Below, piece after piece: positions 10,501 to 53,812 of a DNA stretch of 64,000 nt. This DNA comes from Centroscyllium fabricii. Taxonomy: Eukaryota. Both the position numbers and the translations under genes were made by a program. The DNA lies in contig JBNRSN020000025.1 of the NCBI GenBank assembly GCA_051313645.2, positions 20,770,001 through 20,834,000 on the forward strand. The letters run 5' to 3'. Each line of letters opens with the position of its first letter. Positions within the stretch are counted from its first letter, which is position 1. Below the pieces are notes generated by a model. That model searched no databases. It saw only the letters and a program-made list of their open reading frames with translations, and was not told where the DNA came from.

Positions 10501-11415
10501 TCTTTAAATGGGTATTTCTACCAATCAGGTTCTCATTGATCAGCATGAACTGTATTGTGACAGAATGTGTGACTTATTCCCTAACGACTCATTCGCTAGT
10601 TTAATTTTACTGGGTGCAGAGGATAAGGAGCGCTCCATCTGCTTGCTTAAGGGGAGGTTAAATGACGAGTAAAATTACACCTGGCATTCCTAGAATTGAC
10701 TGGCAATGAAGGCTCTTCAATCAAAAGGTAAACTTTTGTGAAATAGCAGCTGCATGCAAAATTCAAACAATATCCCATATACAATGAATGTAGAAACAAT
10801 TTGCGAAAGGGAGCATAAAAGATACCTATGAGGAACAAGTCTATTTTCACAAAAGCTTGACTTAAATTATATTAAAGCTAATTTACTGGATGTGCTGTGT
10901 AATTGAAACGAGGTAATCGTGTTTTTTTTTATGTGCATATTTGGCAGCCTGGGATAGAGAATATAATTTATCGGTGGACTTTGGTAGAAATGGGAGATAG
11001 TCAGCACAGTGCATTTTTACTTACTGACAAGTTGCTACCGATTAACTCTGACAATGGCTGCTGGGAAAACGACTTTGAAAGACTTCTGGGGAGGTATTGT
11101 CATCTTACTGGGCAGCATTGGATGTAACTGGTATTCTAATACTGCCTGGTAATGATGATGATGGCTTTCTGATTTCATCGAAGAAGAATTCAATGCAAAC
11201 AGAAGAATGAAAATCTCTGGCTTACAGGCTTAAGCAGGATAGGATATTTACAGAGCAACCTGGGAGCTGTTATTTATGATGGGAGCCACGATCATTTATC
11301 CTTCTCATTCTTCTTGTGATAGTTTTTTTTGAGGGGGAGTAGAGCTGTAGTTTCCTTTCATGTCTTTCTGTCCCCTCTGTAATATGCATCCATTTTTAGC
11401 CGTGCTTTCTTGGTA

Positions 11416-12746: not shown

Positions 12747-13787
12747 ACTGGCAGGAGCTGCAGTTGTGAACTCCTGGGAAAGAATGAATTACACTAAAAA
12801 TGGTGCCATGAGTCATGATTTCAACAGGATGGTTGATGTAAAATCATTACATTAGAACATGAGAAGGCAAAATCACTAGACAGGGATAACACTTTTTGCA
12901 TTCCATACAAAATGTAGTTGCCGTATACGACTTGATTTTGTTGCTCTCACATGCTCCTGATAACACAAAAGTTCTATTTTTGCCCTGAAATTTGAGTTAT
13001 TCAGTCATTTGAATTAAGGAACGCAAATAACACAGAAAAATAGGAATTTGGAGCTTGTTTTCACAAAAAAAATGGAGTTTGCAGATAATTAGAATTAAGA
13101 GTTGACTGTAGATAGATATAATGCCCAAATATTTCACCGACAATGACCTCTCTGTTAGCTACTTTATTGGAGTGCAGGTAAAGTCTTGGGATCTGGTTAT
13201 TGGAATTGACTTGTCTAGGTCAAAAATTTGGTGTTGTAAACTTGAAAAGTTGCAACTGGCTCCAAGAGCTTAAGAACACTGATGACCTATTTTGAGTGCT
13301 GGGGCAACGAATCCACTGATTACTGTGTGCGCACTAATCAACTGGGGTCATAAAGATTATAAGTGTTGCTACGGAGGGCGAACATTATGCAGGTTTGTAA
13401 TGCAGTTTTATTTTTTTTACAAAATATATTTTACCTCTGTATTGTGCTGCATAGGGAATGTAAAAGTTGCAATGCATTGAAACTTTCAAGGTGTTTGGAA
13501 AACAAAACCCCTCTAATCTGCTAAGGAACCATAAGTATTCTTTGACGCATGCTCACTAGTTTACCCTGCTAGTGTATTACTAAAGATTTGGCATCATTAG
13601 ATGGGCTAGTGAAGAGATTAACGCTTCAGCAACCTGTTTGTTGGCACAAATCTACTCAGCCACTTGACAACATTTCATTTTTGAAGTTCGAAACACCTGA
13701 TCTATAATCTATAACCGGTATTTCTGTTCTGGTCAAGAGGCCACCATCTGCAAAAAGTTTAAGTAAGTCAACCATCAGAAAGAGATT

Positions 13788-14011
13788 CGTACGACAGCAA
13801 AATACTGCAGATGCTGGAAATCTGAAATAACAACAGAAAATGCTGGAAAAACTCAGCAGGCCAGGCAACATCCGTGGAGAGAAATATAGAGTCGGCGTTT
13901 CGGGTTCGGACCCTTTGTCAAGTGACAAAGGGTCTGAACCCGAAACGTCAACTTTCTCTCCACGGATGTTGCCTGGCCTGCTGAGTTTTTCCAGCATTTT
14001 CTGTTGTTATT
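13788..14011. mobile_element. Palindromic Penelope-like (PLE) terminal-repeat insertion, family P2
   Basis: About 95-bp inverted arms centred on 13921-22; 13-bp direct repeat TCAGAAAGAGATT at 13775-87 and 14012-24; hammerhead-like TGACAAAGGGT…ACCCGAAACGTC motifs. Confidence 0.8.
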
Positions 14012-14621
14012 TCAGAAAGAGATTTACAGTTTGCTGTCTTGTCGAACAGTTAAGAGCAGTACATATACGTCCCCCCCCCCCCCACTTCCGTCTTTTCTCC
14101 AACTCCCAAAAGCTCTGGATTGTGACTTTTCAGGTGCCTGCCACCCTTTGACACCTCTGTAGCTAACTCAAGAGACCATTCTTCATGTCTGTGAATATAG
14201 GCAGGATGTTTGACTGTGGGGTACCTCACAGCTGTCCAACATCTGTACATCGTAGCATCAAGAGTTCAAAAGAGCTCTAATTTTTTACCCTCCATGGCCC
14301 AGAGACATTGAAGCCAGTTGTAGCACCCCTACCACTACACCGGGATGGGACCCAAGACCTTCTGAGTATGTGCAGCTCAGGACCACATTGACCCATTGGT
14401 AATGCTTAATTTTAATAAATCCCATCGCAATTTTACACTATGGGAATGCTCTGTGTTCAAATTGTAGATGTTGTTTTAAAATTGGGTAATCACCTATCTA
14501 CCTCCTTCAATTTGATATGAACAGTGGTTGGTTGTACAAAACATACATTTTGGTGAAAGCGCTTTTAAAAATGCAAAGAAAATGCATTTAACAAAGAAGC
14601 GCAATGTATATAGTTTGTAAG

Positions 14622-14711
14622 AAGTCACACAACACCAGGTTATAGTCCAACAGTTTTATTTGACATCACAAGCTTTCGGAGCGCAGCTCCTTCCTCAGGT
14701 GAAGTCATATG
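14622..14711 (-). mobile_element. Short PLE terminal-repeat insertion, family P1
   Basis: Matches one arm of the palindromes at 15778/21051/26829/30394. TSD TAGTTTGTAAG at 14611-21 and 14712-22. Confidence 0.8.
14666..14702 (-). ncRNA. Minimal type I hammerhead ribozyme motif
   Basis: Minus strand: UCAC CUGAGGA A GGAGC-ugc-GCUCC GAAA GC UU GUGA. Stem I UCAC/GUGA, full core, stem II, palindromic AGCU helix III. Confidence 0.75.
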
Positions 14712-14730
14712 TAGTTTGTAAGTTCTCTAT

Positions 14731-15200
14731 CAATTCAATTCAATTTCAATTCAATTTTTTCAATTCAATTTAAAAAACTTTATTGGCATGACAGGATACA
14801 TCCCTATGTTGCCAAAGTATAAAACATAACATACATAGTTAAAACGCATAGATACAGATACAGATATACAATGTATGGGCAGATATGCCCCTGTACATAT
14901 ATATATACACACAATACATCTGTAACCTTTTATCGGTTGCTACACGTTCTTGCAGTTGCAAACGGTATAATAATTAGTGTCAGTTTGTGTGTGCGTGCGT
15001 GCGTGTGTGCATGTTGGTCATGGTCCTATTCTGTCATCCTCCAGCATTTTGAATTTGGGTATCATAGTTTGGGTATGTATTTACTACTGGATTGAAAATT
15101 GCAATGCTTCCTTCCAATTACAGGAACTGAAACGCTTTCTTCTAGTTTGGGTCAGATACTGGTCCTCTGTGGGCATCTTACTAGACAGTGCTGGATTGCA
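14731..15200 (-). mobile_element. 3' end of a non-LTR retrotransposon with (ATTGA)n tail (RTE-X-like, tentative)
   Basis: (TTCAA)n at 14731-14770, then TTTATTGGCATG…TGTTGCCAAAG hairpin and polyA signal on the minus strand. Near-identical copy at 21930-22210. Left boundary clear, right boundary approximate. Confidence 0.6.
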
Positions 15201-15777
15201 CTGCTAGGTTCTAACACTGTCTGGTAACGATGTTTAAAGAGTGCGCCGCAATCAACAGCCACTGGATACAGTGTACGCACTGTTAGTGACAGATTCCTTG
15301 AACGCAAGCTTAACTTACTGACCTGCTGAAACACTGACTAGTTTGTGCCAGAAGTCACAGTGTGTACAGTAATTAAGCGGGGTGTAGATGAGAGGTTCAC
15401 AGAGACAAATGTGTCAGAATTTAAATGAAATGCTTTCAGCTACAGTTGTAAATTAACACACATACTATTGCATTTGCTTTTCTGCATGTATGTTTTACAA
15501 ATGGAGCCTTTTTAAAAAAAAAATGTTCCCTGTCACTTTTTTTTAGATTTCATTATATTGAAGCTGTATCAAAGGGGTCCGAATATGGAAAATGTAATGG
15601 TTTTCTAGTACTTCCTGTCAACTCAAATCTCTCTGGAAATGAATGTTCCCAGTTCCCTACAGTCTGTTGGTAGGCTCACTCTCAATGGTAGAATGCTGCA
15701 CCTTGGGATGTTGGGAGGGCAGTCCCATAGCTAAGGGAACTGGCCGAGTAGGTTCCTCCCATTACCTCCTATTAGTT

Positions 15778-15982
15778 TAATGCAAGAAGTCACACAACAC
15801 CAGGTTAGAGTCCAACAGCTTTATTTGAAATCACAAGCTTTCGGAGCGCTGCTCCTTCCTCAGGTGAAGTCAGCACTCCGAAAGCTTGTGATTTCAAATA
15901 AAGCTGTTGGACTATAACCTGGTGTTGTGTGACTTCTTACATTTGTCCACCCCAGTCCAACACCAGCATCTCCACATCATGG
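15778..15982. mobile_element. Palindromic PLE insertion, family P1, with intact minus-strand hammerhead (15831-15867)
   Basis: Inverted arms AAGAAGTCACACAACACCAGG…GCTTTCGGAG / CTCCGAAAGC…GTGACTTCTT. TSD CTCCTATTAGTT at 15766-77 and 15983-94. Confidence 0.85.
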
Positions 15983-17100
15983 CTCCTATTAGTTGATCAC
16001 GGAGAGAAATTGATGGCAGTTGTAAATTGGTCTACAGCCCAGACCATTGTTTTCATCAGCTGTAGGAGGGTAAGTGGTGGTAAGTCGTTCTCATGTGGGG
16101 GGAAGAAACATGTTTAATAGATTTTTTTTTAAAGGTTTAGAAAAATGTTCTGTATGTTCTACTTTGTCCCCTTTTCAAGTCTCATTTACCCTTTCTCCCT
16201 CTGGTTTAACATACTGTTTTCTGGCTCAGAGGGAACACAGTTGCCAGCCTTTCAGATCTTTGCCATTGTTGCTTCTGAAGCAGCCACAAGGAGTTGTGGA
16301 AGAGTGACGTTGGTTGACTAACACTTGAACTACCCCCCCTTTTTTTTTGTTACAATGATCATTGATTATTCTGCCTCCTCTTCACTTCATGCACCAACTC
16401 AAACTGGGAACTTGCTGTGTAGGAATTGCAGGCATGTATGAACATATATTAAATTCCCTACATGTGATGTCATTGGTATGCAGAATGCAGTTCTTCCTCT
16501 ATGGATCACAAAATGTGTGACTTCAATAGTTTAGCATTTTTAAGAGTTTGACCAAAAATCAAACATCAGTTTCTTGTAAGACCCTATTAGAGCACCGAAA
16601 TTAGTGAGCTACAGGTTCAATTCCTCTACTTTGCCGAAATGCTAAAAAAAAAATGGACGGCGAGTCTTCCCTGGGGCCTTGTTGCACATCAGTATCCAAC
16701 CCCAGTAACCAGCCCAAGACCTGAACAAATGGTGGCCTTGGAGCAGACTGTCCCTTCTAACGTCTGGGCCACGACAGGTATGTGACCCAGAAGAGATTAA
16801 TAAGAGCAACAGACCAGGGGAGGGAGGATGGGGGGCGAAGTGTACATATTCCTGCTACAATTGTGTATTTTAAATAATGATTTAAGATATTTGAAAGTAT
16901 TTAGTGATCATTCAAAGTACTAAAATAATTTTGACTTATTTGGAAGATAATCTCATGAAAGCACTATTGAAAACATTTTTTGGTAAAAACAGTTGTAGAA
17001 TTCCTGATCACTGTTTCCTGCATTAAATGACAAAATGAGACCCTGAATATGAAATGTGATAATATATGTTCAAATCCACAGTATGATTGTTTGTCAGTTG

Positions 17101-20060: not shown

Positions 20061-21050
20061 CAGTCCTGTTGCTCTAATCTAATGGGTTAATCTTTAATGT
20101 GACAATACATCAGTTAATCAGTTGAATCCAATTCATTGGTATGTGTCATTCGCTGTTAAACTAAATGATTATATCCTGACCAGGACTCCTTGCCCATTTC
20201 AGCAATGTGCTCAGGTGATGAGAAAGTGTCCTCTGAGTACGGTAGATACTCAGATAAAAAGGAAACAAAAATGCAAATGCTCGAAATCTGAAGTAAAACA
20301 GAAAATGCTAGAAAAAATAAATAGGTTAATGTTTTAGGTGTACACATTTTGCCAGGCTGGAAACTGGAGCATAAGCAAGTCCCTTTGTAGTAACAGTTCA
20401 GAGGAAAGCAGACGACGCTTCCTTGTGGTAAATCTAGTGGACCTATTTGTTGGTTTTACCATCAGGAGACTCTACCCGACCCTCAGTTGGATTAGAAGAC
20501 CTATGTTGATAGAGTACTAAGCAAACCAATGACAAAAGACACAGGAGATTCAAGAAGCACGTGGAATCCCCATTTGTGGCATTAGTGTAAAGCTCCACTA
20601 ATAGCCCTGCATTGTCCAGTTTATCTGCCTTGCATAGAATTTTATTCCAGGTGGGATTTATTGTGGTTAACGTCACAGTGGAAACCAATAGTAATCGAGG
20701 CTATATCAGGTGTCACAGGCTGGACTGCTTCATCCTTTCCCAGAATGCCTGCGCTTATCTGTGTTTGGTTTACTGGGTGTAGGTATTGCGTGAGTAGTGC
20801 CTAATCCTTTGTTTAATATTAACTGAGCATGCAAACAAAGCACGCAGGACTCTTGCCAGTCCTTGCTGGCAAAGAGTGCTCGTCTGGCATGCAGCGTAAT
20901 GCTGATATCGAACTCAAAAAAAAATGGAAAAAGCAGAACCTGGCCTCAGCCGCTCAGCTAGGTTTCCTAATAAAATGAAATCTGCAATCCATTGGGCTGA
21001 GCTGTTAAAATGTCTTTGATTTTTTTTTTTACCTGCGCACACCTAGCAGA

Positions 21051-21256
21051 CATGATGTGGAGGTGCCGGTGTTGGACTGGGGTGGACAAATGCAAGAAGT
21101 CACACAACACCAGGTTATAGTCCAACAGTTTTATTTGAAATCACAAGCTTTCGGAGCGCTGCTCCTTCGTCAGGAAGGAGCAGCGCTCCGAAAGCTTGTG
21201 ATTTCAAATAAAACTGTTGGACTATAACCTGGTGTTGTGTGACTTCTTGCATTTGT
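21051..21256. mobile_element. Palindromic PLE insertion, family P1
   Basis: About 83-bp perfect inverted arms around CGTCAG. TSD ACACCTAGCAGA at 21039-50 and 21257-68. Minus-strand core CUGACGA…GAAAGCUU. Confidence 0.85.
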
Positions 21257-21929
21257 ACACCTAGCAGAGGGATGTAACTCTTTGGCTATGGAATCCACTT
21301 TCTGTTGCTGGTACACTTTCTTATCACTTCAATATGCCATTAATTCATTAATTGTTCTGCACTAATTGTAATAGCCAGTAACAAAATAGTGGATGAAAAG
21401 CCTTTCTTAAAAATGAAACCAAATATAATTGTATTTAAAGTACAGCAAACAGACTTGGTTTCCTGTTTAGAATTTAAATTTGTTTTGCAGTAATTATTAC
21501 CAACAATCGTAGATGAGCAATTATTGTACAATAGATGTAATTGTTACTTTGTCTAATGTTAATATACAGATATTTCTATTACAATGCTTGTAGGAGAATT
21601 CTAATGCCAATAGAAGCATGCAAACAAAGCTGATAGGCCATGGGATATCCTGCACTAAAGTCCCTTTCAAGGTGGTATTTATTTACAAAGGCCTTGTGTG
21701 CCAGTTGCTCACCCACCCCAGTGACTACAGATGTCATGTGCTACGGGTAGACCCAATTATGGGGAAGGAGAAAAACCAATCTTAAAAATAAATTAAAAGG
21801 AAATTTTACCCTCACCAAAAAGGTTCCCTGAATGAATGATGAAAGTTCATCCATTACAACAGCGAGCACACTTCATAAAGTATGGAATTGGCTGTAAAGG
21901 CTTTGGCATCCTGAGGTGAAAGGTACTAT

Positions 21930-22211: not shown

Positions 22212-24069
22212 TCACTGTCTCTCAGGTTGTGGCATGCTGTTACGTATTGTGCACCAAGCTGTGCCTTAAAGTGCAACTTTAATACGTACTATATAAATGC
22301 AAGCCTTATTCTGCCGCCCTCCCCCCTCCCCCCCCAACAATCTTTTGTAATATTTACTGACACTATAGTTTTAAAGAGTGGTTTGCAATGAGCTTGTCCA
22401 ATGAAGCTGTGAAATAAACCTGGATAATATTGTTCACACACAAAATGGGAATTGGTTTAAGGTGAATCTCTTATTTTGCCTACTCATTGTATCCATGCAT
22501 GTAGCCAAAAAGCTGGAGCTGTGCTGGTACAGTACAGTTTATTAGTATGTGTGTTTTATTAACTACAGAAGAACAGTTGGGTATTGGTTCAAATGGAGTT
22601 TCTGCCAGTTCCTTGGCTAGTTGAATAAAAAATGCTCTCACAGTGCACTGATGGTAATCTCTCACTGAATTATTATGTATAGTACAGAATGATTGCAACT
22701 TTTAACAAACCTCCAAATGAGAGGGTGTTGTGGAGAAAATGTTTAGAAAGTGCAGTATGGGTTTTGTTTATTTTGTGCCTTTTGTTTCCTCAAAAATAAC
22801 CTCTGAGAATATAACCTCATTTTATAGCGGTCACAATTCCAGTATAAATCAGCAGGCAAAGGTTACTGATTGCCCAAGCTGACTGCATGTTGATTGACGT
22901 CTTACCAGGCATGGTTAGATATAGCTACTTCAGTCTAATACTGTCTGGTAATGCCGTTGATCTCATGTCATAAGTTCTTCACCTTTTGGGAGGAGTTCCA
23001 GCCAAACCTAGCTATCAGTGCCATTTTTGTAGGTGAGGCCAGTCCAGGGGTTGAGCTGTGGGCTGTGCACTGCTGTTTGGGCGTGTCTCTGAAGCCCATT
23101 CAAGTGCATCAGTTCAAAGTGCAACTTTAATACGTCTGGCCTGTTAATGTCTAACAACATTATTCAGCAGAAAAAGGGCATGCATGGAGAAGAACCTGTA
23201 CTACTGCTTTTTCAGAACTTGTGCCAAACTGCCTTTTAAAAGAACGAAGGCTATTGATTAACATTTACCCACCTGCACCAAAGATGCACATCAAAGGGAT
23301 AGTTTCTAGTCTCACGCTGTTGAAATTCTCTTCTACACGTTTAGATGATGCAATAGACATATCCTGTTCACCTCCCAGAGTTTAATCTGATGGACTATTT
23401 TCCATTGTTTATTTTTCCCCAAATGTAACTCAGTTTTTATCATAAAGCACATTTTCTGGACAAAGGGTTAAAGTGTTCGTAAACACTCAAAGTCTGAGAA
23501 TTGCATGCAAACTTAAAACTGTTTTCTGTTGAGCATGTGTTACAGCCATTTCTTTACCCTTCCAGAAGTTTCAAACCAGTGCAGATTTTAGTCGTACCTG
23601 TAGTTGGTTTCTCCCTGGCCCTGTGTTTGTGAAGATTTCATTTACGGTTAGCAACTATAGTGGAACAATAAAGCTTCAGTTTATTGAATTATTCAAAGGT
23701 ATGTTCAGAAATGAGCTGTGCATTCTGTTTGTATTTGGAAATTTTTTAAGCTGTCTTTATGCATTTTATTTAGTAAAGTTTCATAAAACACAGGTTGCTG
23801 TAGCCCAAAGTAACTATAATAGCTTTATAAATTATTCTTAGAGCTTTATACATTAAAATATAGCTGCTATACAATTATGCAGAATTGACTATATGAAGTC
23901 TTAAATAGGGTTGCCATCTTTTGCCACGTCTAAATCTGGACAGGGGTGGGGCTTGGGAGAGTGGATTTAAGATTATCCCGTGCATGGGCTCTGCCTGAGC
24001 ATTGGCCTTCAGATCGCGAAGTGCGGGGTCACTATGCATGGATAGTAAAACTGCATCGTGGAAGTTGTA

Positions 24070-26569: not shown

Positions 26570-27045
26570 AAAGAACAAATGAACTTGCAATTATATGGCT
26601 CCTTTGATGTCCTCAGGGCATCCAGAGCTCTTCGCAGCCAGTGAATTGTTTGTGAAGTGCAGTCACTGTTGTTTTGTAGGTAAACGAGGCAGCTAATTTG
26701 TGCAGGGCAAGAGTCCCACATATGGCAGTGAGATAGATAACCAGATAAGTTGTTTTTAGAAATGTTGATTGAGGGATAAATGGTAGCCAGGACACCAGGA
26801 AAATTCCATGGCTGCCCTTGAAATAATGATGTGGAGGTGCCGGTGTTGGACTGGGGTGGACAAATGTAAGAAGTCACACAACACCAGATTATAGTCCAAC
26901 AGTTTTATTTTAAATCACAAGCTTTCGGAGCGTCTGCCCCTTCATCAGGGGCAAAAGCTCCGAAAGCTTGTGATTTAAAATAAAACGGTTGGACTATAAT
27001 CTGGTGTTGTGTGACTTCTTGAAATAATGCCATGGGATCTGACAG
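26570..27045 (-). mobile_element. Deu-domain SINE (SacSINE1/AmnSINE1-like) fragment, interrupted by a PLE palindrome
   Basis: Homologous to 58593-58895 (GATGTTGATTGAGGGA…CCAGGACACC…GCCATGGGATC) with an L2-type tail. Confidence 0.65.
26829..27017. mobile_element. Palindromic PLE insertion, family P1
   Basis: Inverted arms; TSD CTTGAAATAATG at 26817-28 and 27018-29. Minus-strand core CUGAUGA A GGGGC…GCUCC GAAAGCUU. Confidence 0.85.
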
Positions 27046-29872: not shown

Positions 29873-30258
29873 TTCAACAACAACTTCTATTTATATAGCG
29901 CCTTTAACGTAGTAAAAATGTCCCAAGGTGCTTCACAAGCGTGTTCGAAGACAAAAATTTGACACCGAGCCACATAACACAAAATTAGGGCAGGTGACCA
30001 AAAGCTTGGTCAAAGAGGTAGGTTTTAAGGAGCATCATGAGGCTGAAGGAGATTACAGAGGTAGGGAGGGGGGGAGGCCATGGAGGGATTTGAAAATAAG
30101 GAGGAGAATTTTGAAATCAAGGCGTTGCTTAGCCAGGAGCCAATGTAGGTCAGCGAGCACAGGGGTGATGGGTGAACGGGATGTTTGTGCGAGTTAGGGC
30201 ACGGGCAGCCGAGTTTTGGATGACCTCAAGTTTATGCAGGGTAGAAAATGGGAGGCCG
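29873..30258 (-). mobile_element. L2 LINE 3' fragment (internally deleted)
   Basis: Homologous to 25225-26050; (AAC)n tail. Confidence 0.8.
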
Positions 30259-30482
30259 TGTGTACAATCCATAACTCGGGCTAGTGTATCCTCAAAGGCA
30301 TTCTCTCCCACCCAATCATCATAAAGATCAATTTAAATATAATAGGAACTTAAATATATAAATATAATTTATCAACTGTACAGCTTTAAACCATAATGTG
30401 GAGGTGCCGGTGTTGGACTGGGGTGGACAAATGCAAGAAGTCACACAACACCAGATTATAGTTCAACAGTTTTATTTTAAAT

Positions 30483-30517
30483 CACAAGCTTTCGGAGCGC
30501 TGCTCCTTCCTCAGGTG
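30483..30517 (-). ncRNA. Minimal type I hammerhead ribozyme motif
   Basis: Minus strand: CAC CUGAGGA A GGAGC-agc-GCUCC GAAA GC UU GUG. Confidence 0.75.
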
Positions 30518-30521
30518 GGTC

Positions 30522-30556
30522 CACCTGAGGAAGGAGCAGTGCTCCGAAAGCTTGTG
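30522..30556 (+). ncRNA. Minimal type I hammerhead ribozyme motif
   Basis: CAC CUGAGGA A GGAGC-agu-GCUCC GAAA GC UU GUG. Predicted cleavage 3' of 30553. Confidence 0.75.
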
Positions 30557-30685
30557 ATTTAAAATAAAACCGTTGGACTATAATCTGGTGTGTGACTTCT
30601 AGCTTTAAACCAGACAGACCAAAAAGTCCCAGGGTTGATTCTGATCTGTGCCAAATAGTTGTTACATATGATTGCATATTATTAC

Positions 30686-30812
30686 ATAGGACTGCAGCGG
30701 TTCAAGAAGGTGGCTCACCACCATCTTCTCAAGGGCAATTAGGGATGGGCACTAAATGCAGGCCTAGCCAGCCAGCGACACCCACATCCCATCAACGAAT
30801 AAAAAAAAAAAA
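30686..30812 (+). mobile_element. Non-LTR retrotransposon 3' end with poly(A)
   Basis: GGACTGCAGCGGTTCAAGAAGG…CACATCCCATCAACGAAT followed by a poly(A) run; a minus-strand CR1 3' end follows at about 30813-30985. Confidence 0.65.
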
Positions 30813-31239: not shown

Positions 31240-34200
31240 GGGGTAGATCTTGACTTTATGCGAAATTGTAAAACGGGCGATTGTGAATCGGCATCTCTCC
31301 CGATTTTCTGTGGCATTGGCTTCCATGGAAGTAAAAATCAGGAGAGATGTAAAATAGGCTGCTGACTATCGCCCACTTCACACTATCGCCCACTTCACAC
31401 TATCGCCCACTTCACACTATCGCCCACTTCACACTATCGCCCACTTCACACTATCGCCCACTTCACACTATCGCCCACTTCACACTATCGTCCACTTCAC
31501 ACTATCGCCCACTTCACACTATTGCCCACTTCACACTATCGCCCACTTCACACTATCGCCCACTTCACACTATCGCCCACTTCACACTATCGTCCACTTC
31601 ACACTATTGTCCACTTCACATTATCGCCCACTTTACACTATGGCACACTTCACACTATCGTCCACTTCACACTATCGCCCACTTCACACTATCGCTCACT
31701 TCACACTATCGCCCACTTCACACTATCGCCCACTTCACACTATCGCCCACTTCACAGTATCGTCCACTTCACACTATCGCCCACTTCACACTATCGCCCA
31801 CTTCACACTATCGCCCACTTCACACTATCGCCCACTTCACATTATCGTCCACTTCACACTATCGCCCACTTCACACTGTCGCCCACTTCACACTGTCGCC
31901 CACTTCACACTATCGTCCACTTCACACTATCGCCCACTTCACACTGTCGCTCACTTCACACTATCGCCCACTTCACACTATCGCCCACTTCACACTATCG
32001 CCCACTTCACACTATCGCCCACTTCACACTATCGCCCACTTCACATTATCGCCCACTTCACACTATCGCCCACTTCACACTATCGCCCACTTCACACTAT
32101 CGCCCACTTCACACTATCGCCCACTTCACACTATCGCCCACTTCACACTATCGCCCACTTCACACTATCGCCCGCTTCACACTGTCGCCCGCTTCACACT
32201 GTCGCCCACTTCACACTGTCGCCCACTTCACACTATCGCCCACTTCACACTATCGCCCACTTCACACTATCGCCCACTTCACACTATCGCCCACTTCACA
32301 CTATCGCCCACTTCACATTATCGCCCACTTCACATTATCGCCCACTTCACACTATCGCCCACTTCACACTATCGCCCACTTCACACTGTCGCCCACTTCA
32401 CACTGTCGCCCACTTCACACTGTCGCCCACTTCACACTGTCGCCCACTTCACACTGTCGCCCACTTCACACTATCGCCCACTTCACACTATCGCCCACTT
32501 CACACTATCGCCCACTTCACACTATCGCCCACTTCACATTATCGCCCACTTCACAATATCGCCCACTTCACAATATCGCCCACTTCACACTATCGCCCAC
32601 TTCACACTATCGCCCACTTCACACTATCGCCCACTTCACACTATCACCCACTTCACATTATCGCCCACTTCACACTATCGCCCACTTCACACTATCGCCC
32701 ACTTCACACTATCGCCCACTTCACACTATCGCCCACTTCACACTATCGCCCACTTCACACTATCGTCCACTTCACACTATTGTCCACTTCACATTATCGC
32801 CCACTTTACACTATGGCACACTTCACACTATCGTCCACTTCACACTATCGCCCACTTCACACTATCGCTCACTTCACACTATCGCTCACTTCACACTATC
32901 GCCCACTTCACACTATCGCCCACTTCACACTATCGCCCACTTCACAGTATCGTCCACTTCACACTATCGCCCACTTCACACTATCGCCCACTTCACACTA
33001 TCGCCCACTTCACACTATCGCCCACTTCACATTATCGTCCACTTCACACTATCGCCCACTTCACACTGTCGCCCGCTTCACACTGTCGCCCACTTCACAC
33101 TATCACCCACTTCACACTATCGTCCACTTCACACTATCGCCCACTTCACACTGTCGCTCACTTCACACTATCGCCCACTTCACACTATCGCCCACTTCAC
33201 ACTATCGCCCACTTCACACTATCGCCCACTTCACATTATCGCCCACTTCACACTATCGCCCACTTCACACTATCGCCCACTTCACACTATCGCCCACTTC
33301 ACACTATCGCCCACTTCACACTATCGCCCACTTCACACTATCGCCCACTTCACACTATCGCCCACTTCACACTATCGCCCACGTCACACTATCGCCCACT
33401 TCACACTATCGTCCACTTCACACTATCGTCCACTTCACACTATCGCCCACTTCACACTATCGCCCACTTCACACTATCGCCCACTTCACACTATCGCCCA
33501 CTTCACACTATCACCCACTTCACACCGTCGCCCACTTCACACCGTCGCCCACTTCACACCGTCGCCCACTTCACACCTTCGCCCACTTCACACCATCGCC
33601 CACTTCACACCATCGCCCACTTCACACCATCGCCCACTTCACACTATCGCCCACTTCACACTATCGCCCACTTCACACTATCACCCACTTCACACTATCG
33701 CCCACTTCACATTATCGCCCACTTCACACTATCACCCACTTCACACTATCGCCCACTTCACATTATCGCCCACTTCACATTATCGCCCACTTCACACTAT
33801 CGCCCACTTCACACTATCGCCCACTTCACACTATCACCCACTTCACACTATCGCCCACTTCACACTATCGCCCACTTCACACTATCGCCCACTTCACACT
33901 ATCGCCCGCTTCACACTATCGCCCGCTTCACACTATCGCCCGCTTCACACTATCGCGCACTTCACACTATCGCCCACTTCACACGGTCGCCCACTTCACA
34001 CTATCGCCCGCTTCACACTATCGCCCGCTTCACACTATCGCCCGCTTCACACTATCGCCCGCTTCACACTATCGCGCACTTCACACTATCGCCCACTTCA
34101 CACGGTCGCCCACTTCACACTGTCGCCCACTTCACACTATCACCCACTTCACACTATCGCCCACTTCACACTATCGCCCACTTCACACTATCATCCACTT

Positions 34201-36550
34201 CACACTATCACCCACTTCACAGTATCGCCCACTTCACACTATCGCCCACTTCACACTATCGCCCACTTCACACTGTCGCCCACTTCACACTATCGCCCAC
34301 TTCACACTATCGCCCACTTCACACTATCGCCCACTTCACACTATCACCCACTTCACACTATCACCCACTTCACATTATCGCCCACTTCACACTATCGCCC
34401 ACTTCACACTATCGCCCACTTCACACTATCGCCCACTTCACACTATCGCCCACTTCACACTATCGCCCACTTCACACTATCGCCCACTTCACACTATCGC
34501 CCACTTCACACTATCGCCCACTTCACACTATTGTCCACTTCACATTATCGCCCACTTTACACTATGGCACACTTCACACTATCGTCCACTTCACACTATC
34601 GCCCACTTCACACTATCGCTCACTTCACACTATCGCCCACTTCACACTATCGCCCACTTCACACTATCGCCCACTTCACACTATCGCCCACTTCACAGTA
34701 TCGTCCACTTCACACTATCGCCCACTTCACACTATCGCCCACTTCACACTATCGCCCACTTCACACTATCGTCCACTTCACACTGTCGCCCACTTCACAC
34801 TGTCGCCCACTTCACACTGTCGCCCAGTTCACACTATCACCCACTTCACACTATCGCCCACTTCACACTATCGCCCACTTCACACTATCGCCCACTTCAC
34901 ACTATCGCCCACTTCACACTATCGCCCACTTCACACTATCGCCCACTTCACACTATCGCCCACTTCACACTATCGCCCACTTCACACTATCGCCCACTTC
35001 ACACTATCGCCCACTTCACACTATCGCCCACTTCACACTATCGCCCACTTCACACTATCGCCCACTTCACACTATCGCCCACTTCACACTGTCGTCCACT
35101 TCACACTGTCGCCCACTTCACACTGTCGCCCACTTCACACTGTCGCCCACTTCACACCGTCGCCCACTTCACACCGTCGCCCACTTCACACCGTCGCCCA
35201 CTTCACACCGTCGCCCACTTCACACCTTCGCCCACTTCACACCATCGCCCACTTCACACCATCGCCCACTTCACACCATCGCCCACTTCACACTATCGCC
35301 CACTTCACACTATCGCCCACTTCACATTATCGCCCACTTCACACTATCGCCCACTTCACACTATCGCCCACTTCACACTATCACCCACTTCACACTATCG
35401 CCCACTTCACACTATCGCCCACTTCACACTATCGCCCACTTCACATTATCGCCCACTTCACACTATCGCCCACTTCACACTATCGCCCACTTCACACTAT
35501 CACCCACTTCACACTATCGCCCACTTCACACTATCGCCCACTTCACACTATCGCCCACTTCACACTATCGCCCACTTCACACTATCGCCCGCTTCACACT
35601 ATCGCGCACTTCACACTATCGCCCACTTCACACGGTCGCCCACTTCACACTGTCGCCCACTTCACACTATCGCCCACTTCACACTATCGCCCACTTCACA
35701 CTATCGCCCACTTCACACTATCGTCCACTTCACACTATCGCCCACTTCACATTATCGCCCACTTCACACTATCGCCCACTTCACACTATCGCCCACTTCA
35801 CACTGTCGCCCACTTCACACTATCGCCCACTTCACACTATCGCCCACTTCACACTATCGCCCACTTCACATTATCGCCCACTTCACAATATCGCCCACTT
35901 CACACTATCGCCCACTTCACACTATCGCCCACTTCACACTATCGCCCACTTCACACTATCACCCACTTCACACTATCACCCACTTCACACTATCGCCCAC
36001 TTCACACTATCGCCCACTTCACACTATCGCCCACTTCACACTATCGCCCACTTCACACTATCGCCCACTTCACACTATCGCCCACTTCACACTGTCGCCC
36101 ACTTCACACTATCGCCCACTTCACACTATCGCCCACTTCACACTATCGCCCACTTCACACTATCGCCCACTTCACACTATCGCCCACTTCACACTGTCGC
36201 CCACTTCACACTGTCGCCCACTTCACACTGTCGCCCACTTCACACTGTCGCCCACTTCACACTATCGCCCACTTCACACTGTCGCCCACTTCACACTGTC
36301 GCCCACTTCACACTGTCGGCCACTTCACACTGTCGCCCACTTCACACTGTCGCCCAGTTCACACTATCGCCCACTTCACACTATCGCCCACTTCACACTA
36401 TCGCCCACTTCACACTATCGCCCACTTCACACTATCGCCCACTTCACACTGTCGCCCACTTCACACTGTCGCCCACTTCACACTGTCGGCCACTTCACAC
36501 TGTCGCCCACTTCACACTATCGCCCACTTCACACTGGCAAGATCTATCCC
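31240..36550. mobile_element. Small MITE hosting a 5.2-kb minisatellite
   Basis: TIRs GGGGTAGATCTTG (31240-52) / CAAGATCTATCCC (36538-50), 12/13 match. Internal palindrome ATCTCTCCCGATTTT / AAAATCAGGAGAGAT. The flanks rejoin into one old SINE-like repeat. Confidence 0.75.
31365..36535. repeat. 17-bp minisatellite (ACTATCGCCCACTTCAC)n, about 304 copies
   Basis: Directly visible: 5171 bp / 17. Substitution variants only, with register preserved. Confidence 0.99.
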
Positions 36551-43566: not shown

Positions 43567-44005
43567 TTTAATCACTATCCAATGCAAATTTGAGGAAAAA
43601 AAGCACCCGGCATTTTCAGAAACCAGTAACCTTAATACAACAGCAGATACATATTCAAATAGTGTCTGACTGGTCATTTACATTATGGACTACAGATGAT
43701 GGTGAGAACCTCAAGTCTGTTGTTAGGTGCACTCCTGTAATGTAAAGTGCATTAAAACTGTTCCCACTAATTTCATAGAATTCTGTTGGTTTACAGTTGC
43801 TTTTATTGCATTGTTTACATAGTATTTACAGCAAAGAAACAGGTCATTCGGCCCAACAGGTCCATGACGGTGCTTATCCTCCACACGAGCCTCTTACCCA
43901 CCCCTCTTCATCTAACTCCGTCAATATATCCTTCTATTCCTATCTTGTCCACATGCTTATCCAGCTTCCCCTACCACATTTATTTTTTGTATTTGATTAC
44001 ATATA

Positions 44006-44679
44006 CAGGTTGCGCACCATTAATCCGCCACGGGCGGGACCAGGCCCGTGCCGGGAAACTGAAAAATCCGGGAGAACGAAGTTGGACACTGCGCATGCGC
44101 ACCATTCAAAATGGCCACGCGCATGCGCACAACATTGGGATTGGCTGGCGCGCGCATGCGCAGATCAACCAATAATGGCCGCCGCGAAGTTTTTTGAGGG
44201 GCTCAGGCTTGTGTGGCGTTCCGTTTGCCTTTTAGGGCTGTCGGGCAGCAGTGAAAGGCCGGTCTTGCAGGGGGGCGGGGAAGGAGGGTTGTGCGGGCGC
44301 GGGTCGGGCCCAGTAGGTCCGCCTTCCCTCTCCATCGCCTTTCGGGTTGCTGCTGCCGCCGAGCCGGACTCAGGCTGACAGCTGTTGCCTAGTGACTGAC
44401 CGCCTCAGTCACGGGGCTCAGTTGTCTAGAAAATAACCGGCGGCCGTATTGAATTATCTGCGCATGCGCTGGTCGTCCGGCGATGCATGCGCAGATCATT
44501 CAAAACACCCGGCAGCCGTTTTGAATGATCTGCGCATGCGCTCGGCGCATGCGCAGATCATTCGCCGAAGCCGCGATGGTGGCTGCCATCTTGCGCATGC
44601 GCAGTGCAGTCGGGGCAATTTGTGCCGGCAGACTGAAGCTGCCGGCTTTTCGGGACATGGATTTTCAGTGCACAACCTG
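44006..44679 (+). mobile_element. Tc1/mariner-type MITE family B (GCGCATGCGC-rich)
   Basis: TIRs CAGGTTGCGCAC / GTGCACAACCTG with TA flanks (44004-05, 44680-81). Confidence 0.88.
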
Positions 44680-44911
44680 TATATATTTTCTCTCTCTTTT
44701 CAATCCACACTTTCATTTGGGCTTTTTTCTTTACTCTGCTGAAGCTGTTCACACCTATTCGGAGCCATCCTGTGTCCCTTGAATTTCTCCGAATATCTCT
44801 TACCTTCCCCCACCTTCCAGCCTGTCACTGATCTTTCCTTTGTTCTTTCAGCCCCGCCCCCCATCCTTTCCCCAGCTGTAAAATCTATCTCCCCCCCCTC
44901 CCGGCTTCTCC

Positions 44912-44948
44912 AGTTTTGAAAAAAGGTCATCGACCTGAAACGTTAACT
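44912..44948 (+). ncRNA. Minimal hammerhead motif with U3-A8 core variant (PLE family P2)
   Basis: AGUU UUGAAAA A AGGUC-auc-GACCU GAAA CG UU AACU. Stem I AGUU/AACU, 5-bp stem II, palindromic ACGU helix III. Confidence 0.6.
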
Positions 44949-45116
44949 CTGCTCCTCTCTCCACCGATGCTGCCTGGGCCTGCTGAGTTTCTCCAGCGTT
45001 TTCTGTTGTTATTCCCCTTAAATGAATCTATGTTAGTCGCCTCAACCACTCCCTGTGGTAGCAGTTTCCACATTCTAACCACTCTCTGGGTAAAGAAGTT
45101 TCTCCTGAATTCGCTA

Positions 45117-45634
45117 CAGGTTGTGCACCGAACATCTGTGTCCCGAATAGCCAGCAGCTTCAGTCTGCCAGCACAAATTGCCCCGACTGCACTGCGCATG
45201 CGCAAGATGGCTGCCGCCATTGTGGCTTCGGCGAATGATCGGCGCATGCGCCGATCATTCAAAACAGCTGCGGGTGTTTTGAATGATCTGCGCATGCGTC
45301 GCCGGACGGTTAGCGCATGCGCAGATAATTCAATACGGCCGCCGGTTATTTTCCCGACAGCTGAGACCCGTGACTGAGGCGGACAGTCACTAGGCAACAG
45401 CTGTCAGCCTGAGTCCAGCTTGGCGGCAGCAGCAACCCGAAAGGCGATGGAGAGGGAACGCGGACCCGTGCCCGATCTGCGCATGCGAGCGCCAGCCAAT
45501 CCCAATGTTGTGCGCATGCGCGTGGCCATTTTGAATGGTGCGCATGCGCAGTGTGCAACCTCGTTCTCCCGGTTTTTTCTGTTTCCCGGCACGGGCCTGG
45601 TCCCGCCCGTGGCGGATTAATGGTGCACAACCTG
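45117..45634 (-). mobile_element. MITE family B, inverted copy
   Basis: Reverse complement of 44006-44679 with an internal deletion; TA flanks at 45115-16 and 45635-36. Confidence 0.88.
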
Positions 45635-46149
45635 TATTGGATTTATTAGTGATTATCTTCTATTGATGGCCCCTAGTTCTGGTCACCCTTGCAAGTGGAA
45701 ATCTCTTCTACGTCCAGCCTATCAAACCCTTTCAGAATCTTAAAGATATCTGTCAAATCACCCATCAGTCTTCTCTTCTAGAGAAAAGAGCCTCACTCTG
45801 TTCAACCTTTCCTGATAGCTATAACCTTTCAGTCCTGGTATCATTCTAGTAAATCTTGTTTGTACTTCCTCCAGTGCTTCCATGTTCTTTTTATAATATG
45901 GAGACCCAAACTGTTCACAGTACTCCAGGTACGGTCTAACCAAGGTTCAATATATTTTAATTTGGACTCCAGGGATTCTCTGGCCCTGGTGTTTGTGCAG
46001 TGAAATCTGTTTTCCTCAGCCCAGCGACAGCATTGTAAATCAGATCCACTAGTCCGCCAGAAGGCAGATCATTGATTTAACAACATAAATGCTGAGCCCA
46101 AGGCTCTTGGCTCGCAGGCTTTTGACATCTGAATTAGACGAAGAAAATG

Positions 46150-48129: not shown

Positions 48130-48415
48130 TTTTCTTTACTATGCTAAAGCTGTTCACACCTATTCTGAGCCATCCTGTGTTTCTTCAATTTCTCCGCATA
48201 TCTCTGATCTCCCCCACCTTCTAGCCTGTCGCTGTTCTTTCAGCACCTCCCCCCCACCCCCCCTTTCCCCAGCCCCCACAAGCTTTAAAATCTATCTCCC
48301 CTCCTGGCTTCTCCAGTTTTGAAAAAAGGGCATCGACCTGAAACGTCAACTCTGCTCCTCTCTCCACCGATGCTGCCTGGCCTGCTGAGTTTATCCAGCG
48401 TTTTCTGTTGTTATT
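48130..48415 (+). mobile_element. PLE terminal-repeat insertion, family P2
   Basis: Homologous to 44720-45011. TSD TGCACAGATAT at 48119-29 and 48416-26. Hammerhead-like motif at 48315-48351 (UUGAAAA core). Confidence 0.8.
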
Positions 48416-48584
48416 TGCACAGATATAATTTTGTCTTCATTTTAAAGTCATACATTTTTTCCTTATTTTTATATTTCCATTATAAATTCCTTTGTCAATT
48501 TGCTTAATATATAATGGATACTGTCTATGTATCTCTCTAATCGTAGCCAGAGAATTACCTGCAACGACTTCTCTTCTTGTTACC

Positions 48585-48943
48585 TCTGGACGGTGTCCCC
48601 CAAGGATCTATCATTGGCCCCCCTCCTATTTTTCATCTAGATACTGTCCCTTGGCGACATCATCCAAAAACACAGCCTCAGTTTCCACATGTACGCTGCC
48701 GACCCCCAGCTCTACCTCACCGCCACTTCCCTCGATCCCGCCACGGTCTCTAAATGGCCAGGCTGCTTGTCCGACATCTGGATGAGCAGGAATTTTCTCC
48801 AATAAAGTATTGGAAAGACCGAAGCCATTGTTTTCGGTCCCTGTCACAAACTCCGTTCCCTAGCCACTGACTCCATCCCTCTCCCTAACATCTGTCTGAG
48901 GCTGAACCACACTGTTCGCAACCTTGGTGTCATATTTGACCCT
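48585..48943 (+). mobile_element. L2 RT fragment
   Basis: GGTGTCCCCCAAGGATCT (GVPQGS), TTCCACATGTACGCTGCCGACCCCCAGCTCTAC (FHMYAADPQLY) and CGCAACCTTGGTGTCATATTTGAC (RNLGVIFD). Confidence 0.85.
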
Positions 48944-49485
48944 GAACATAAGAACATAAGAAATAGGAGCAGGAGTAGGCCATTCGGCCCTTCGAGCCTG
49001 CTGCGCCATTCAATGAGATCATGGCTGATCATCCAAACCCAGCACCCTGTCCCTGCCTTGTCCCCATATCCCTCGATCCCTATCGAGCCTGCACGGGGAA
49101 ATGCGAGGTGATGCACTTCGGTAGGGCAAATAGGAAGAGGGAATATAGGGTCAACGGCAGGGTCCTGAGCGAAGCAGAGGAGCAAAGGGATCTGGGAGTA
49201 TATGTACACAGATCATTGAAGGCTGCCACCCAGGTGGACAAGGCAGTAAAAAAGGCCTATGGTGTATTGGCCTTCATCAACAGGGGAATAGAGTTTAAGA
49301 ACCGGGAGGTCATGCTACAGCTGTACAGGTCACTGGTGAGACCACACTTGGAGTACTGTGTGCAGTTCTGGGCACCGTACTACAGGAGGGATCATAGAAT
49401 CATAGAAGATAGGAGCAGGAGTAGGCCATTCAGCCCTTCGAGCCTGCTCCGCCATTCAATGAGATCATGGCTGATCTTTAGCAAG

Positions 49486-52365: not shown

Positions 52366-52436
52366 CTTCCTACCATTTGTTTCTGGCTTCCTATGACCTC
52401 CCTCTTTTCCACTACCTATCCCAACCCCCTGCCAAG

Positions 52437-53387
52437 TTAGTTTAAACCCTCCCCAACCATGCTAGCAAACCTCCCCGCCAGGATATTGGTCCCCCTCCGG
52501 TTAAGGTGGAGACCGTCGTCCCTATACCAGTCCCACCTTTCCCAGAAACAGGGCCAGTTATCCAGGAAACTAAAGCCCTCCCTCCTGCACCAACTCTTGA
52601 GCCACGTATTAAGCTGCTCTATCCTTCTATTCCTATACTCACTAAATCGTGGCACAGGGAGTAATCCAGAGATTACAACCTTTGAGGTCCTGCACTTTAA
52701 TTTTCTGCCTAGCTCCCTGAATTCTTGTTGCAGGACCTCATCCCTCTTTTTACCTATGTCGTTGATTCCTATGTGTACAACGACCTCTGGCTGGTTTCCC
52801 TCCCTTTTCAGGATGTCCTGCAGCCGTTCTGTGACATCCTTGACCCTGGCACCAGGGAGGCAACAGACCATCCTGGAGTCACGTCTACGGCCACAGAAAC
52901 GCCTATCTGCTCTCCTTACGATAGAGTCCCCTACCACTATTGCTCTCTCATGCCTTTTCCCCCCCAGCTGAACAGCAGAAGCAACCCCAGTGCCCGGAGT
53001 TTGGCCACTGCTGCTTTCCCCTGGTAGGTCCCCCCCCCCAACAGTATCCAAAGCGGTATACTTGTTCGTGAGGGGGATGACCACAGAGGTTTCCTGCTCT
53101 ACCTGCCTGGCCCTACTGTTCTTTCTGATGGTCACCCATTCCCCTTCTGCCTGCACACCCTTAGCCTGCGGTGTGACCAGCTCACTGTATGAGTAATCCA
53201 CGCTCCCCTCAGCTTCGTGAATGCTCCCTAACCCATCCACCCTCAGTTCCAGTGCCGCAATGCGGTCAGTCAGTAACTGAAGGTGGACGCATTTCCCGCA
53301 CACATGGTCACCAGGGGCTCCAATGGTGTCCCTGGCTTCCCATATGTGGCAGGAGGAGCAAAGCACGGCACCATGCTGCACTGACAT
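52437..53387 (-). CDS. CR1 ORF1: C4 zinc finger, leucine zipper and SGNH/GDSL esterase domain
   Basis: CSSC…CGKC, heptad LLTDRIAALELRVDGL, SGNH blocks VVGDS, PGA, HIGIND, DGLHLN. 316 aa with an ATG start. Confidence 0.92.
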   Translation of the reverse strand: MSVQHGAVLCSSCHIWEARDTIGAPGDHVCGKCVHLQLLTDRIAALELRVDGLGSIHEAEGSVDYSYSELVTPQAKGVQAEGEWVTIRKNSRARQVEQETSVVIPLTNKYTALDTVGGGDLPGESSSGQTPGTGVASAVQLGGKRHERAIVVGDSIVRRADRRFCGRRRDSRMVCCLPGARVKDVTERLQDILKREGNQPEVVVHIGINDIGKKRDEVLQQEFRELGRKLKCRTSKVVISGLLPVPRFSEYRNRRIEQLNTWLKSWCRREGFSFLDNWPCFWERWDWYRDDGLHLNRRGTNILAGRFASMVGEGLN

Positions 53388-53812
53388 GACTTACCCCACT
53401 AATTACTTTTACAAAAAATTAACACCCCAAAAAAACAAGATATATACTAGGGTGCTAGTCTATCAGAAGTCCCCGTTATACCACAGAGACCTCAGAAAAA
53501 TAAATAAATAAAAATAAATAAATCACTTACCCTGCTTGCCTTTATAGCCGCCGCCTCCTGTTGTCTCCTCCTAGTACCGTCCCGCTGCCTGCTCCTGAAA
53601 AGAAAGACCCGCGAAAAACTCCTGCCCTGGTCCTGCTGCTGCCACCGACTGCTACCTCTGTCCAGGAGCCCCTTCCACTCACGTTCAGTCTCTGAAAATA
53701 ATCAATAAATCACCTACCTTTTTTTCAAAATTCTCTCAACCCCTAAAGGTTAGAGGAGGTGGAAGGGTGGGAGACACTAGTGTAGTGTCTCGGGTTTAGC
53801 AACTGCTCCACC

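Follow-up and report, generated by a model that had tools for sequence, protein, structure and literature searches.

We found a short repeat arm at five places in the window, the 64,000-nt stretch of Centroscyllium fabricii DNA analysed here, and the five copies, none of which has an ORF, very probably arose by independent retrotransposition of the terminal repeat (pLTR) with its hammerhead from an endonuclease-bearing (EN+) Penelope-like element (PLE). The best explanation of the whole, to which we give a probability of roughly 0.55, is that these pLTR insertions were made by two-ended priming and that their ribozyme was locked afterwards; for two-ended priming as the mechanism, we put the odds at about even. 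Inverted pLTRs with tails are already published, and what is new here is an empty site, a catalogue of junctions and ends, and an argument drawn from one asymmetric copy, E16.

BLAST within the window gave nine arms, which make up one solo arm (E14) and four palindromes (E16, E21, E27 and E30; Table 1). The initial annotation had placed sisters of E30 at 15778, 21051 and 26829 and a single arm at 14622; all exist, each with its own TSD. The TSDs of E14, E16, E21, E27 and E30 are 11, 12, 12, 12 and 12 nt long (5/5 copies) and differ in sequence. By chance, an 11-mer was shared in 14 of 5000 random window pairs; this background replaced an earlier value of 306/3000, which was set aside because tandem arrays inflate it. 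The tail is confined to one arm in 4/4 palindromes, and the solo arm is without it. Downstream of the predicted cut, tail-less arms of the window copies end after 48-59 nt and tailed arms after about 90-96 nt, and an overlap of 3-6 nt with the TSD is seen at several ends (E14, E27 and probably E30). The position of the centre differs among all four palindromes, which bears out the earlier claim of a different fold-back point in each copy (alignment).

Table 1. Positions of the repeat copies, ribozymes and microRNA hairpins of the window
Feature	Position	Strand	Basis or remark
Second, unrelated hammerhead-centred palindrome family	13775-14024		13-nt direct repeat at ends, partly overlapping arm
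Decayed single arms related to second family	44916-45013; 48325-48416		
Solo tail-less arm E14; 11-nt TSD 14611-14621 / 14712-14722	14611..14722	-	alignment and TSD search
Sister palindrome E16; 12-nt TSD 15766-15777 / 15983-15994	15766..15994		alignment and TSD search
Sister palindrome E21; 12-nt TSD 21039-21050 / 21257-21268; tailed arm on -	21039..21268		alignment and TSD search
Sister palindrome E27; 12-nt TSD 26817-26828 / 27018-27029; tailed arm on -	26817..27029		alignment and TSD search
Left TSD of E30, 12 nt	30382..30393		single copy at organism B empty site
Penelope-type tail, ~35-45 nt, AC-rich in sense, one E30 arm only	30394..30430	-	arm alignment; contig loose ends 30392/30396, 30429
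E30 long (tailed) arm	30394..30521	-	BLAST and alignment
Complete minimal type I hammerhead; predicted cut between 30486 and 30485	30483..30517	-	descriptor
E30 short (tail-less) arm	30522..30600	+	BLAST and alignment
Complete minimal type I hammerhead; predicted cut 3' of 30553	30522..30556	+	descriptor
Right TSD of E30, 12 nt	30601..30612		direct repeat of 30382-30393
mir-8/141/200-family hairpin	11096..11162	+	Rfam RF00241, 71.1 bits
mir-8/141/200-family hairpin between E14 and E16	15169..15237	+	67.7 bits
mir-8/141/200-family hairpin downstream of E21	22893..22961	+	63.2 bits

E30 had been described as one long hairpin over 30382-30612, and that interval does fold with an energy of -149.9 kcal/mol (z -20.3; 0/200 shuffles equal). 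Its anatomy can be refined to a paired stem at ~30433-30606, a tail without a partner from 30394 to ~30430, and the 12-nt TSDs; the insert proper is 30394-30600 (207 nt). The arms lie head-to-head and both start with a minimal type I hammerhead, and the two back-to-back complete hammerheads proposed for this centre were recovered by descriptor at the very positions given for them.

We searched both strands of the window with a relaxed min-hammerhead descriptor (3-bp stem I), using 60 shuffled windows as control, and found four matches (+30525, -30514, -15863 and -14698; shuffled mean 0.03, maximum 1). Complete ribozymes are thus present in E30 on both strands and in E16 and E14 on the minus strand, and that of E30 is the sole complete plus-strand hammerhead of the window. 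The Rfam search that the initial annotation had proposed was run, and the hammerhead models gave no match in the window at E<=1, nor in two short stretches at E<=10. Since the motif is without a helix III loop, this miss is not counted against the ribozyme, and the call is based on the descriptor of PMC4209133. As microRNA precursors, hairpins of the E30 family were rejected: their Rfam scores are below gathering (MIR5048, 57.9 vs 160; mir-1597, 48.8-57.6 vs 93; MIR7807, 55 vs 90) and are generic long-hairpin matches.

Descriptor and alignment gave no complete plus-strand ribozyme in the four sisters. That the sisters keep the core holds for the minus strand, on which E14 and E16 are complete and E21 and E27 have the CUGANGA/GAAA core, but stem I of E21 and E27 is broken by the junction. 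E16 carries the whole hammerhead on its tail-less arm (-), and its tailed arm (+) begins only at the stem II loop. The arms of E21 show no difference across 64 compared columns, and a variant stem II is common to both arms of E27. The core lies on the minus strand in all four asymmetric copies (1 in 8, two-sided) and one quarter of the window holds all five copies (p about 0.016); both observations are post hoc and weak.

We aligned contigs of four sequencing runs on 30258-30700 at 85% likeness. In a related species (organism B, run X5), a 348-nt contig (contig 25) joins 30258-30380 directly to 30600-30691, with 123 and 92 letters aligned and 12 differences; it skips 219 nt, which is the insertion plus one TSD. 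The arm family is also present in organism B (4,423 contigs aligned). Hence, E30 is younger than the species split, as the site is empty in organism B though the family is present there. Independent insertion of each copy, also claimed earlier, is upheld by the distinct TSDs, by this empty orthologous site and by the many centre junctions among contigs.

Contigs on the element numbered 42,855 (X1) and 38,551 (X3) in organism A, counts that mark a high-copy family and are not copy numbers. Among 24 of the 648 loose-end entries of X1, ends were found at 30392 (178 contigs) and 30396 (402), which is the tail end, at 30429 (126), which is the tail-less end, and at 30517 (244) and 30522 (91), just upstream of stem I; these 24 include no pile at the cut site. 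Past the tail, the loose ends vary in sequence (agreement 0.35-0.39). Centre joints gave 113 entries, and 14 of the best 15 are skips through the centre region; 10/14 reach upstream of the cut site and 4/14 fit a ribozyme-cleaved template. Most joint sides are 18-28 nt at 85% likeness, which makes single entries insecure, and the contigs are too short to link a centre junction to a tailed or tail-less end. The same 15 of 113 entries hold no empty-site joint within organism A, the unique flank being poorly covered in X1 and X3. In the window, 5/5 copies extend upstream of the cut site.

We assign the copies to PLEs because their anatomy matches in the min-hammerhead, the head-to-head inversion, the one-sided tail and the TSD. 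Specifically, the features of EN+ PLEs found here are a minimal type I hammerhead, a one-sided tail of 30-40 nt, a head-to-head 5'-truncated copy, and a TSD of variable sequence that is absent as a duplication at the empty site. Partial direct tandems forming pLTRs were absent from the window. Pfam, applied to 26 of the 45 window ORFs of >=120 aa, gave no PLE domain and returned a LINE ORF1/ORF2 pair only; most of the other 19 belong to tandem arrays or share sequence with ORFs that were scanned. A protein search with one 30-codon open frame through the tail (1 of 3 frames) had no match. Scans for the repeat motif gave 0 matches in metagenome_contigs and 0 in viral_contigs, and the single match in genome_contigs (a prokaryote) was discarded as a chance 20-mer inside a bacterial gene, without further similarity. 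The search for a parent PLE that had been suggested at the outset thus led to no further locus of the repeat in the metagenome, viral and prokaryote collections. Hence, the origin from Penelope terminal repeats first put forward stands by anatomy, but no RT or GIY-YIG ORF is joined to the repeat in the 26/45 ORFs, the one frame and the public collections searched. A MITE or other DNA transposon was rejected, as the tail is unpaired at one end, a solo arm exists and the TSDs differ in sequence.

For the origin of the palindromes, we propose the following. The PLE protein would nick the target strands with a stagger of 11-12 nt, and both nicks would prime RT internally, the template being a single uncleaved RNA of the pLTR or a pair of RNAs from the same source locus. 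One nick would prime at the outer start site (the tail end) and the other at an inner site, about 40 nt closer to the RNA 5' end. The cDNAs would each be only 50-130 nt long and would reach the RNA 5' end, which would precede the hammerhead by a few bases, or its vicinity; they would be joined there via 0-4 nt microhomologies from the self-complementary stems of the ribozyme. The outcome would be a head-to-head palindrome with the tail on a single side, and priming by one nick alone would give a solo arm. Under this proposal, the clustering of junctions at the ribozyme reflects its location at the template 5' end and not cleavage by it. We infer the PLE enzyme, the priming at two ends, the position of the RNA 5' end and the lack of cleavage; since most arms run past the cut site, the RNA that was copied would have been uncleaved.

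The steps have precedents. A Poseidon PLE protein cuts and extends both target strands (PMC11167929; Frangieh et al. 2024), and in the same report RT begins in vitro at two internal sites bounding the tail, the protein is a predicted dimer and the template is uncleaved. In Drosophila Penelope, a 75-nt intron begins 46 nt downstream of the transcription start (PMC2377424), and the 3' end of this intron adjoins the ribozyme (PMC4209133), so the ribozyme lies near the RNA 5' end. As to the 5' ends of the copies, E14 and E16 share the same base (positions 14705 and 15871), and a G lies just before the 5' end in E14, E16 and E30 (14705, 15871 and 30521), where the plurality of longer contigs has C. 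Speculatively, this G may stem from an RNA cap that was copied at a start resembling an initiator, or be fortuitous; it concerns 2-3 copies, each otherwise explicable. GACTTC, repeated at both ends of E14, was dropped as a mark of a tandem unit, since the plurality sequence upstream in contigs differs.

The two arms of a copy resemble each other. Arms within copies differ by 8 in total, versus a mean of 14 for pairings (5/105 pairings are as good), and 30470 T>C, at about 7% of family depth, is on both E16 arms. The arms of each copy could hence share a template or source; alternatively, conversion may have made them alike once they were inserted. Arm-shared variants, along with the head-to-head orientation, are also accounted for by fold-back, in which a single tail-primed cDNA snaps back, or switches template to itself, and endonuclease resolution at the inner site leaves the tail-less arm. 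Fold-back is consistent with E21, E27 and E30 and with the short microhomologies at the centres; published palindromic inverted junctions are interpreted as self-priming in PMC3846280, and the tail is attributed to EN-mediated resolution in PMC8557442. We consider it rather unlikely here. In E21 and E27 the tailed arm reaches further 5', but in E16 the tail-less arm does so (alignment), and fold-back of a single tail-primed cDNA cannot give that asymmetry without a later one-sided deletion. An inner-site-primed cDNA, for its part, cannot supply the tail, because there is no tail in it to copy. Moreover, solo E14 ends at the same inner site as the short arms, with its own TSD and a TSD-overlapping microhomology, which points to a priming site, and both sites are RT starts in vitro (PMC11167929). 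The case against fold-back is nonetheless carried by the single copy E16 and is thin, as the loss of ~19 nt from one side of its centre after insertion would account for it as well. What had been read as inversion of the cDNA near the ribozyme therefore stands for the junctions at the ribozyme and for the independence of the insertions, but plain fold-back is doubtful given the asymmetry of E16.

A non-autonomous hairpin family is improbable. One or more palindromic masters would be transcribed and retrotransposed whole, and later cruciform deletions would alter the centres; the uniform size (200-215 nt), the very high copy number suggested by the X1 contigs and the recurrence of some junctions at depths of 100-400, versus a flank depth of about 10, agree with this. 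A solo arm flanked by a TSD does not, nor do four centres in four copies and the 113 joint entries; the tail side and the 5'-longer side vary, and a long perfect hairpin would presumably be a poor RT template. Least probable is a non-LTR retrozyme, in which RNAs of unit length, or circles, would arise by ribozyme cleavage and then undergo reverse transcription and insertion: the min-hammerhead type is the same, and retrozymes, which descend from the pLTRs of PLEs, are present in a chondrichthyan (bioRxiv 10.64898/2026.07.22.740005), but the window has no head-to-tail tandem of the unit, the geometry is head-to-head, and the unit ends are off the cut site, which 5/5 copies and 10/14 of the skips among the best 15 of 113 joints pass beyond.

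In the two-ended reading the ribozyme is locked after insertion, and we compared its fold with that of the hairpin. The hairpin is more stable than the ribozyme fold by 38.1, 50.8, 42.5, 62.4 and 57.9 kcal/mol (four palindromes), and the G10.1-C11.1 pair has a probability of 1e-11 to 1e-18 in the palindromes; the solo hammerhead of E14 is free to fold (0.8 kcal/mol from the MFE). Because the antisense arm is transcribed first in the head-to-head geometry and pairs with the ribozyme, the latter would be sequestered. In a two-copy cofold, imposing helix III on the dimer costs 5-7 kcal/mol relative to the free MFE, a value that is no measure of activity. By these models, the palindrome ribozymes are probably locked in dsRNA and functionally dead or silent, and those of the window probably do not cut host RNA. 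The initial annotation had pictured self-cleavage sites scattered through any transcript crossing the region; this is not supported, as the window has one complete plus-strand ribozyme only and the hairpin wins by 38-62 kcal/mol. The dsRNA hairpins that it pictured alongside are plausible. Activity of such motifs is low elsewhere: min-hammerheads had no activity as monomers and low activity as dimers (PMC4209133), 1/9 Xenopus dimers cleaved (bioRxiv 10.64898/2026.07.22.740005) and an Anolis hammerhead required protein (PMC11167929). Dimer cleavage of hammerheads is reported by Lunse et al., as cited in PMC6765202.

Three mir-8/141/200-family hairpins exceed the Rfam gathering score (Table 1). 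Hence, the window is vertebrate. They spread across about 12 kb, with E14, E16, E21 and the second-family palindrome among them; the core-bearing arms of the four asymmetric copies are on the strand opposite to the miRNAs, and E30 with its plus-strand ribozyme lies 7.5 kb past the last miRNA hairpin. In human, miR-200-family hairpins form one transcript (PMC5122366). If the cluster here is also one transcript, E16 and E21 would plausibly insert 68- and 88-bp hairpins between its second and third miRNA, and these could be ADAR or Drosha substrates. Insertions of the E30 type would matter little for the biology of the locus, their ribozymes being probably silent.

The second palindrome family has a ~33-nt tail on its left arm only. 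Core position 8 is A on both of its arms and position 3 is also U on the left arm; a U3-A8 variant core is described in PMC4209133. In both decayed arms related to this family, the sequence continues 5' of the ribozyme with a pyrimidine tract that terminates in CAG, much as if a 3' splice site adjoined the hammerhead, a layout that resembles the intron and hammerhead of Drosophila Penelope; a search for a TSD of the arm at 48325 found none. An element of ~1.6 kb at about 44003-45637 has long inverted repeats nested in one another (164, 196 and 140 nt per arm, at 91-96%), and its ends resemble CAG...CTG termini flanked by TA; we take it to be similar to a non-autonomous DNA transposon of pogo/Tigger type. 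A young LINE at 48800-53400 (-), presumably CR1/L2-like, has a 317-aa ORF with a GDSL-esterase domain and a 991-aa ORF with APE endonuclease and RT. A 5.2-kb satellite (31365-36535) consists of 304 copies of a 17-nt unit with 95% matches and is open in three frames.

Tentatively, and at somewhat less than even odds, the shark mini-palindromes may be the in vivo footprint of two-ended Penelope insertion, primed on the 5' pLTR, with the cDNAs joined at the ribozyme. If so, the origin of the inverted repeats and tails of PLEs would be decidable from one assembly, by counting which arm is 5'-longer. Short, abundant and datable copies with empty sites in relatives would make a natural experiment on two-ended priming versus fold-back, its material being young copies in the thousands and two or more families of such build. 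The origin of the tandem and inverted structures and of the tails is called undefined in the text of PMC8557442, and a literature search, with Repbase and most subscription papers outside it, found nothing on such mini-palindromes or on twin priming in PLEs.

Among known systems, the copies are closest in build to insertions of EN+ PLEs. PMC3846280 (Arkhipova et al. 2013) describes pLTRs inverted head-to-head around a palindromic junction, with TSDs of 8-10 bp and a tail of 31 bp on one of the pLTRs. An inverted 5'-truncated copy with a tail of 30-40 bp at one end is reported in PMC8557442 (Craig et al. 2021) and PMC8969392. The shark copies share with these insertions (PMC3846280, PMC8557442 and PMC2377424, Schostak et al. 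2008) the head-to-head repeat, the palindromic junction, the 30-40 nt tail, the TSD (8-10 bp in Adineta versus 11-12 nt here) and one inverted repeat shorter than the other. Unlike the insertions as those texts present them, they have only about 90-130 nt of repeat per side, no ORF and no direct tandem, and their junctions are confined to the ribozyme.

In the metazoan PLE min-hammerheads of PMC4209133 (Cervera and de la Pena 2014), stem II is preceded by an additional base and helix III is palindromic. The ribozymes here resemble them in the CUGANGA core, the extra base between positions 9 and 10.1, the G10.1-C11.1 pair, the helix III without a loop and the short helix I. Most min-hammerhead copies in that report lie outside full elements, some as opposite-strand pairs 100-700 bp apart; in contrast, the pair of predicted ribozymes in E30 is back to back, 4 nt apart, with a 5-bp stem II and the triplet CUU. 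Non-LTR retrozymes (bioRxiv 10.64898/2026.07.22.740005) are likewise short, non-coding and pLTR-related with a type I hammerhead, but are described as head-to-tail tandems of at least two ribozyme units, whereas the shark copies are head-to-head or solo.

The Poseidon element PAc of Anolis (PMC11167929) has, like the shark repeat, two classes of 3' end that bound the tail downstream of the hammerhead, and its template is uncleaved, as is proposed for the shark repeat. RT of PAc starts 111-118 nt into the ORF, with the cut at +26, compared with shark ends 48-59 and about 90-96 nt past the cut. The start codon of the PAc ORF lies within the ribozyme; of the shark copies, 4/5 lack this AUG, and its frame stops after 10 codons. 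PAc belongs to Poseidon, and the parent clade of the shark repeat would be Poseidon or Neptune.
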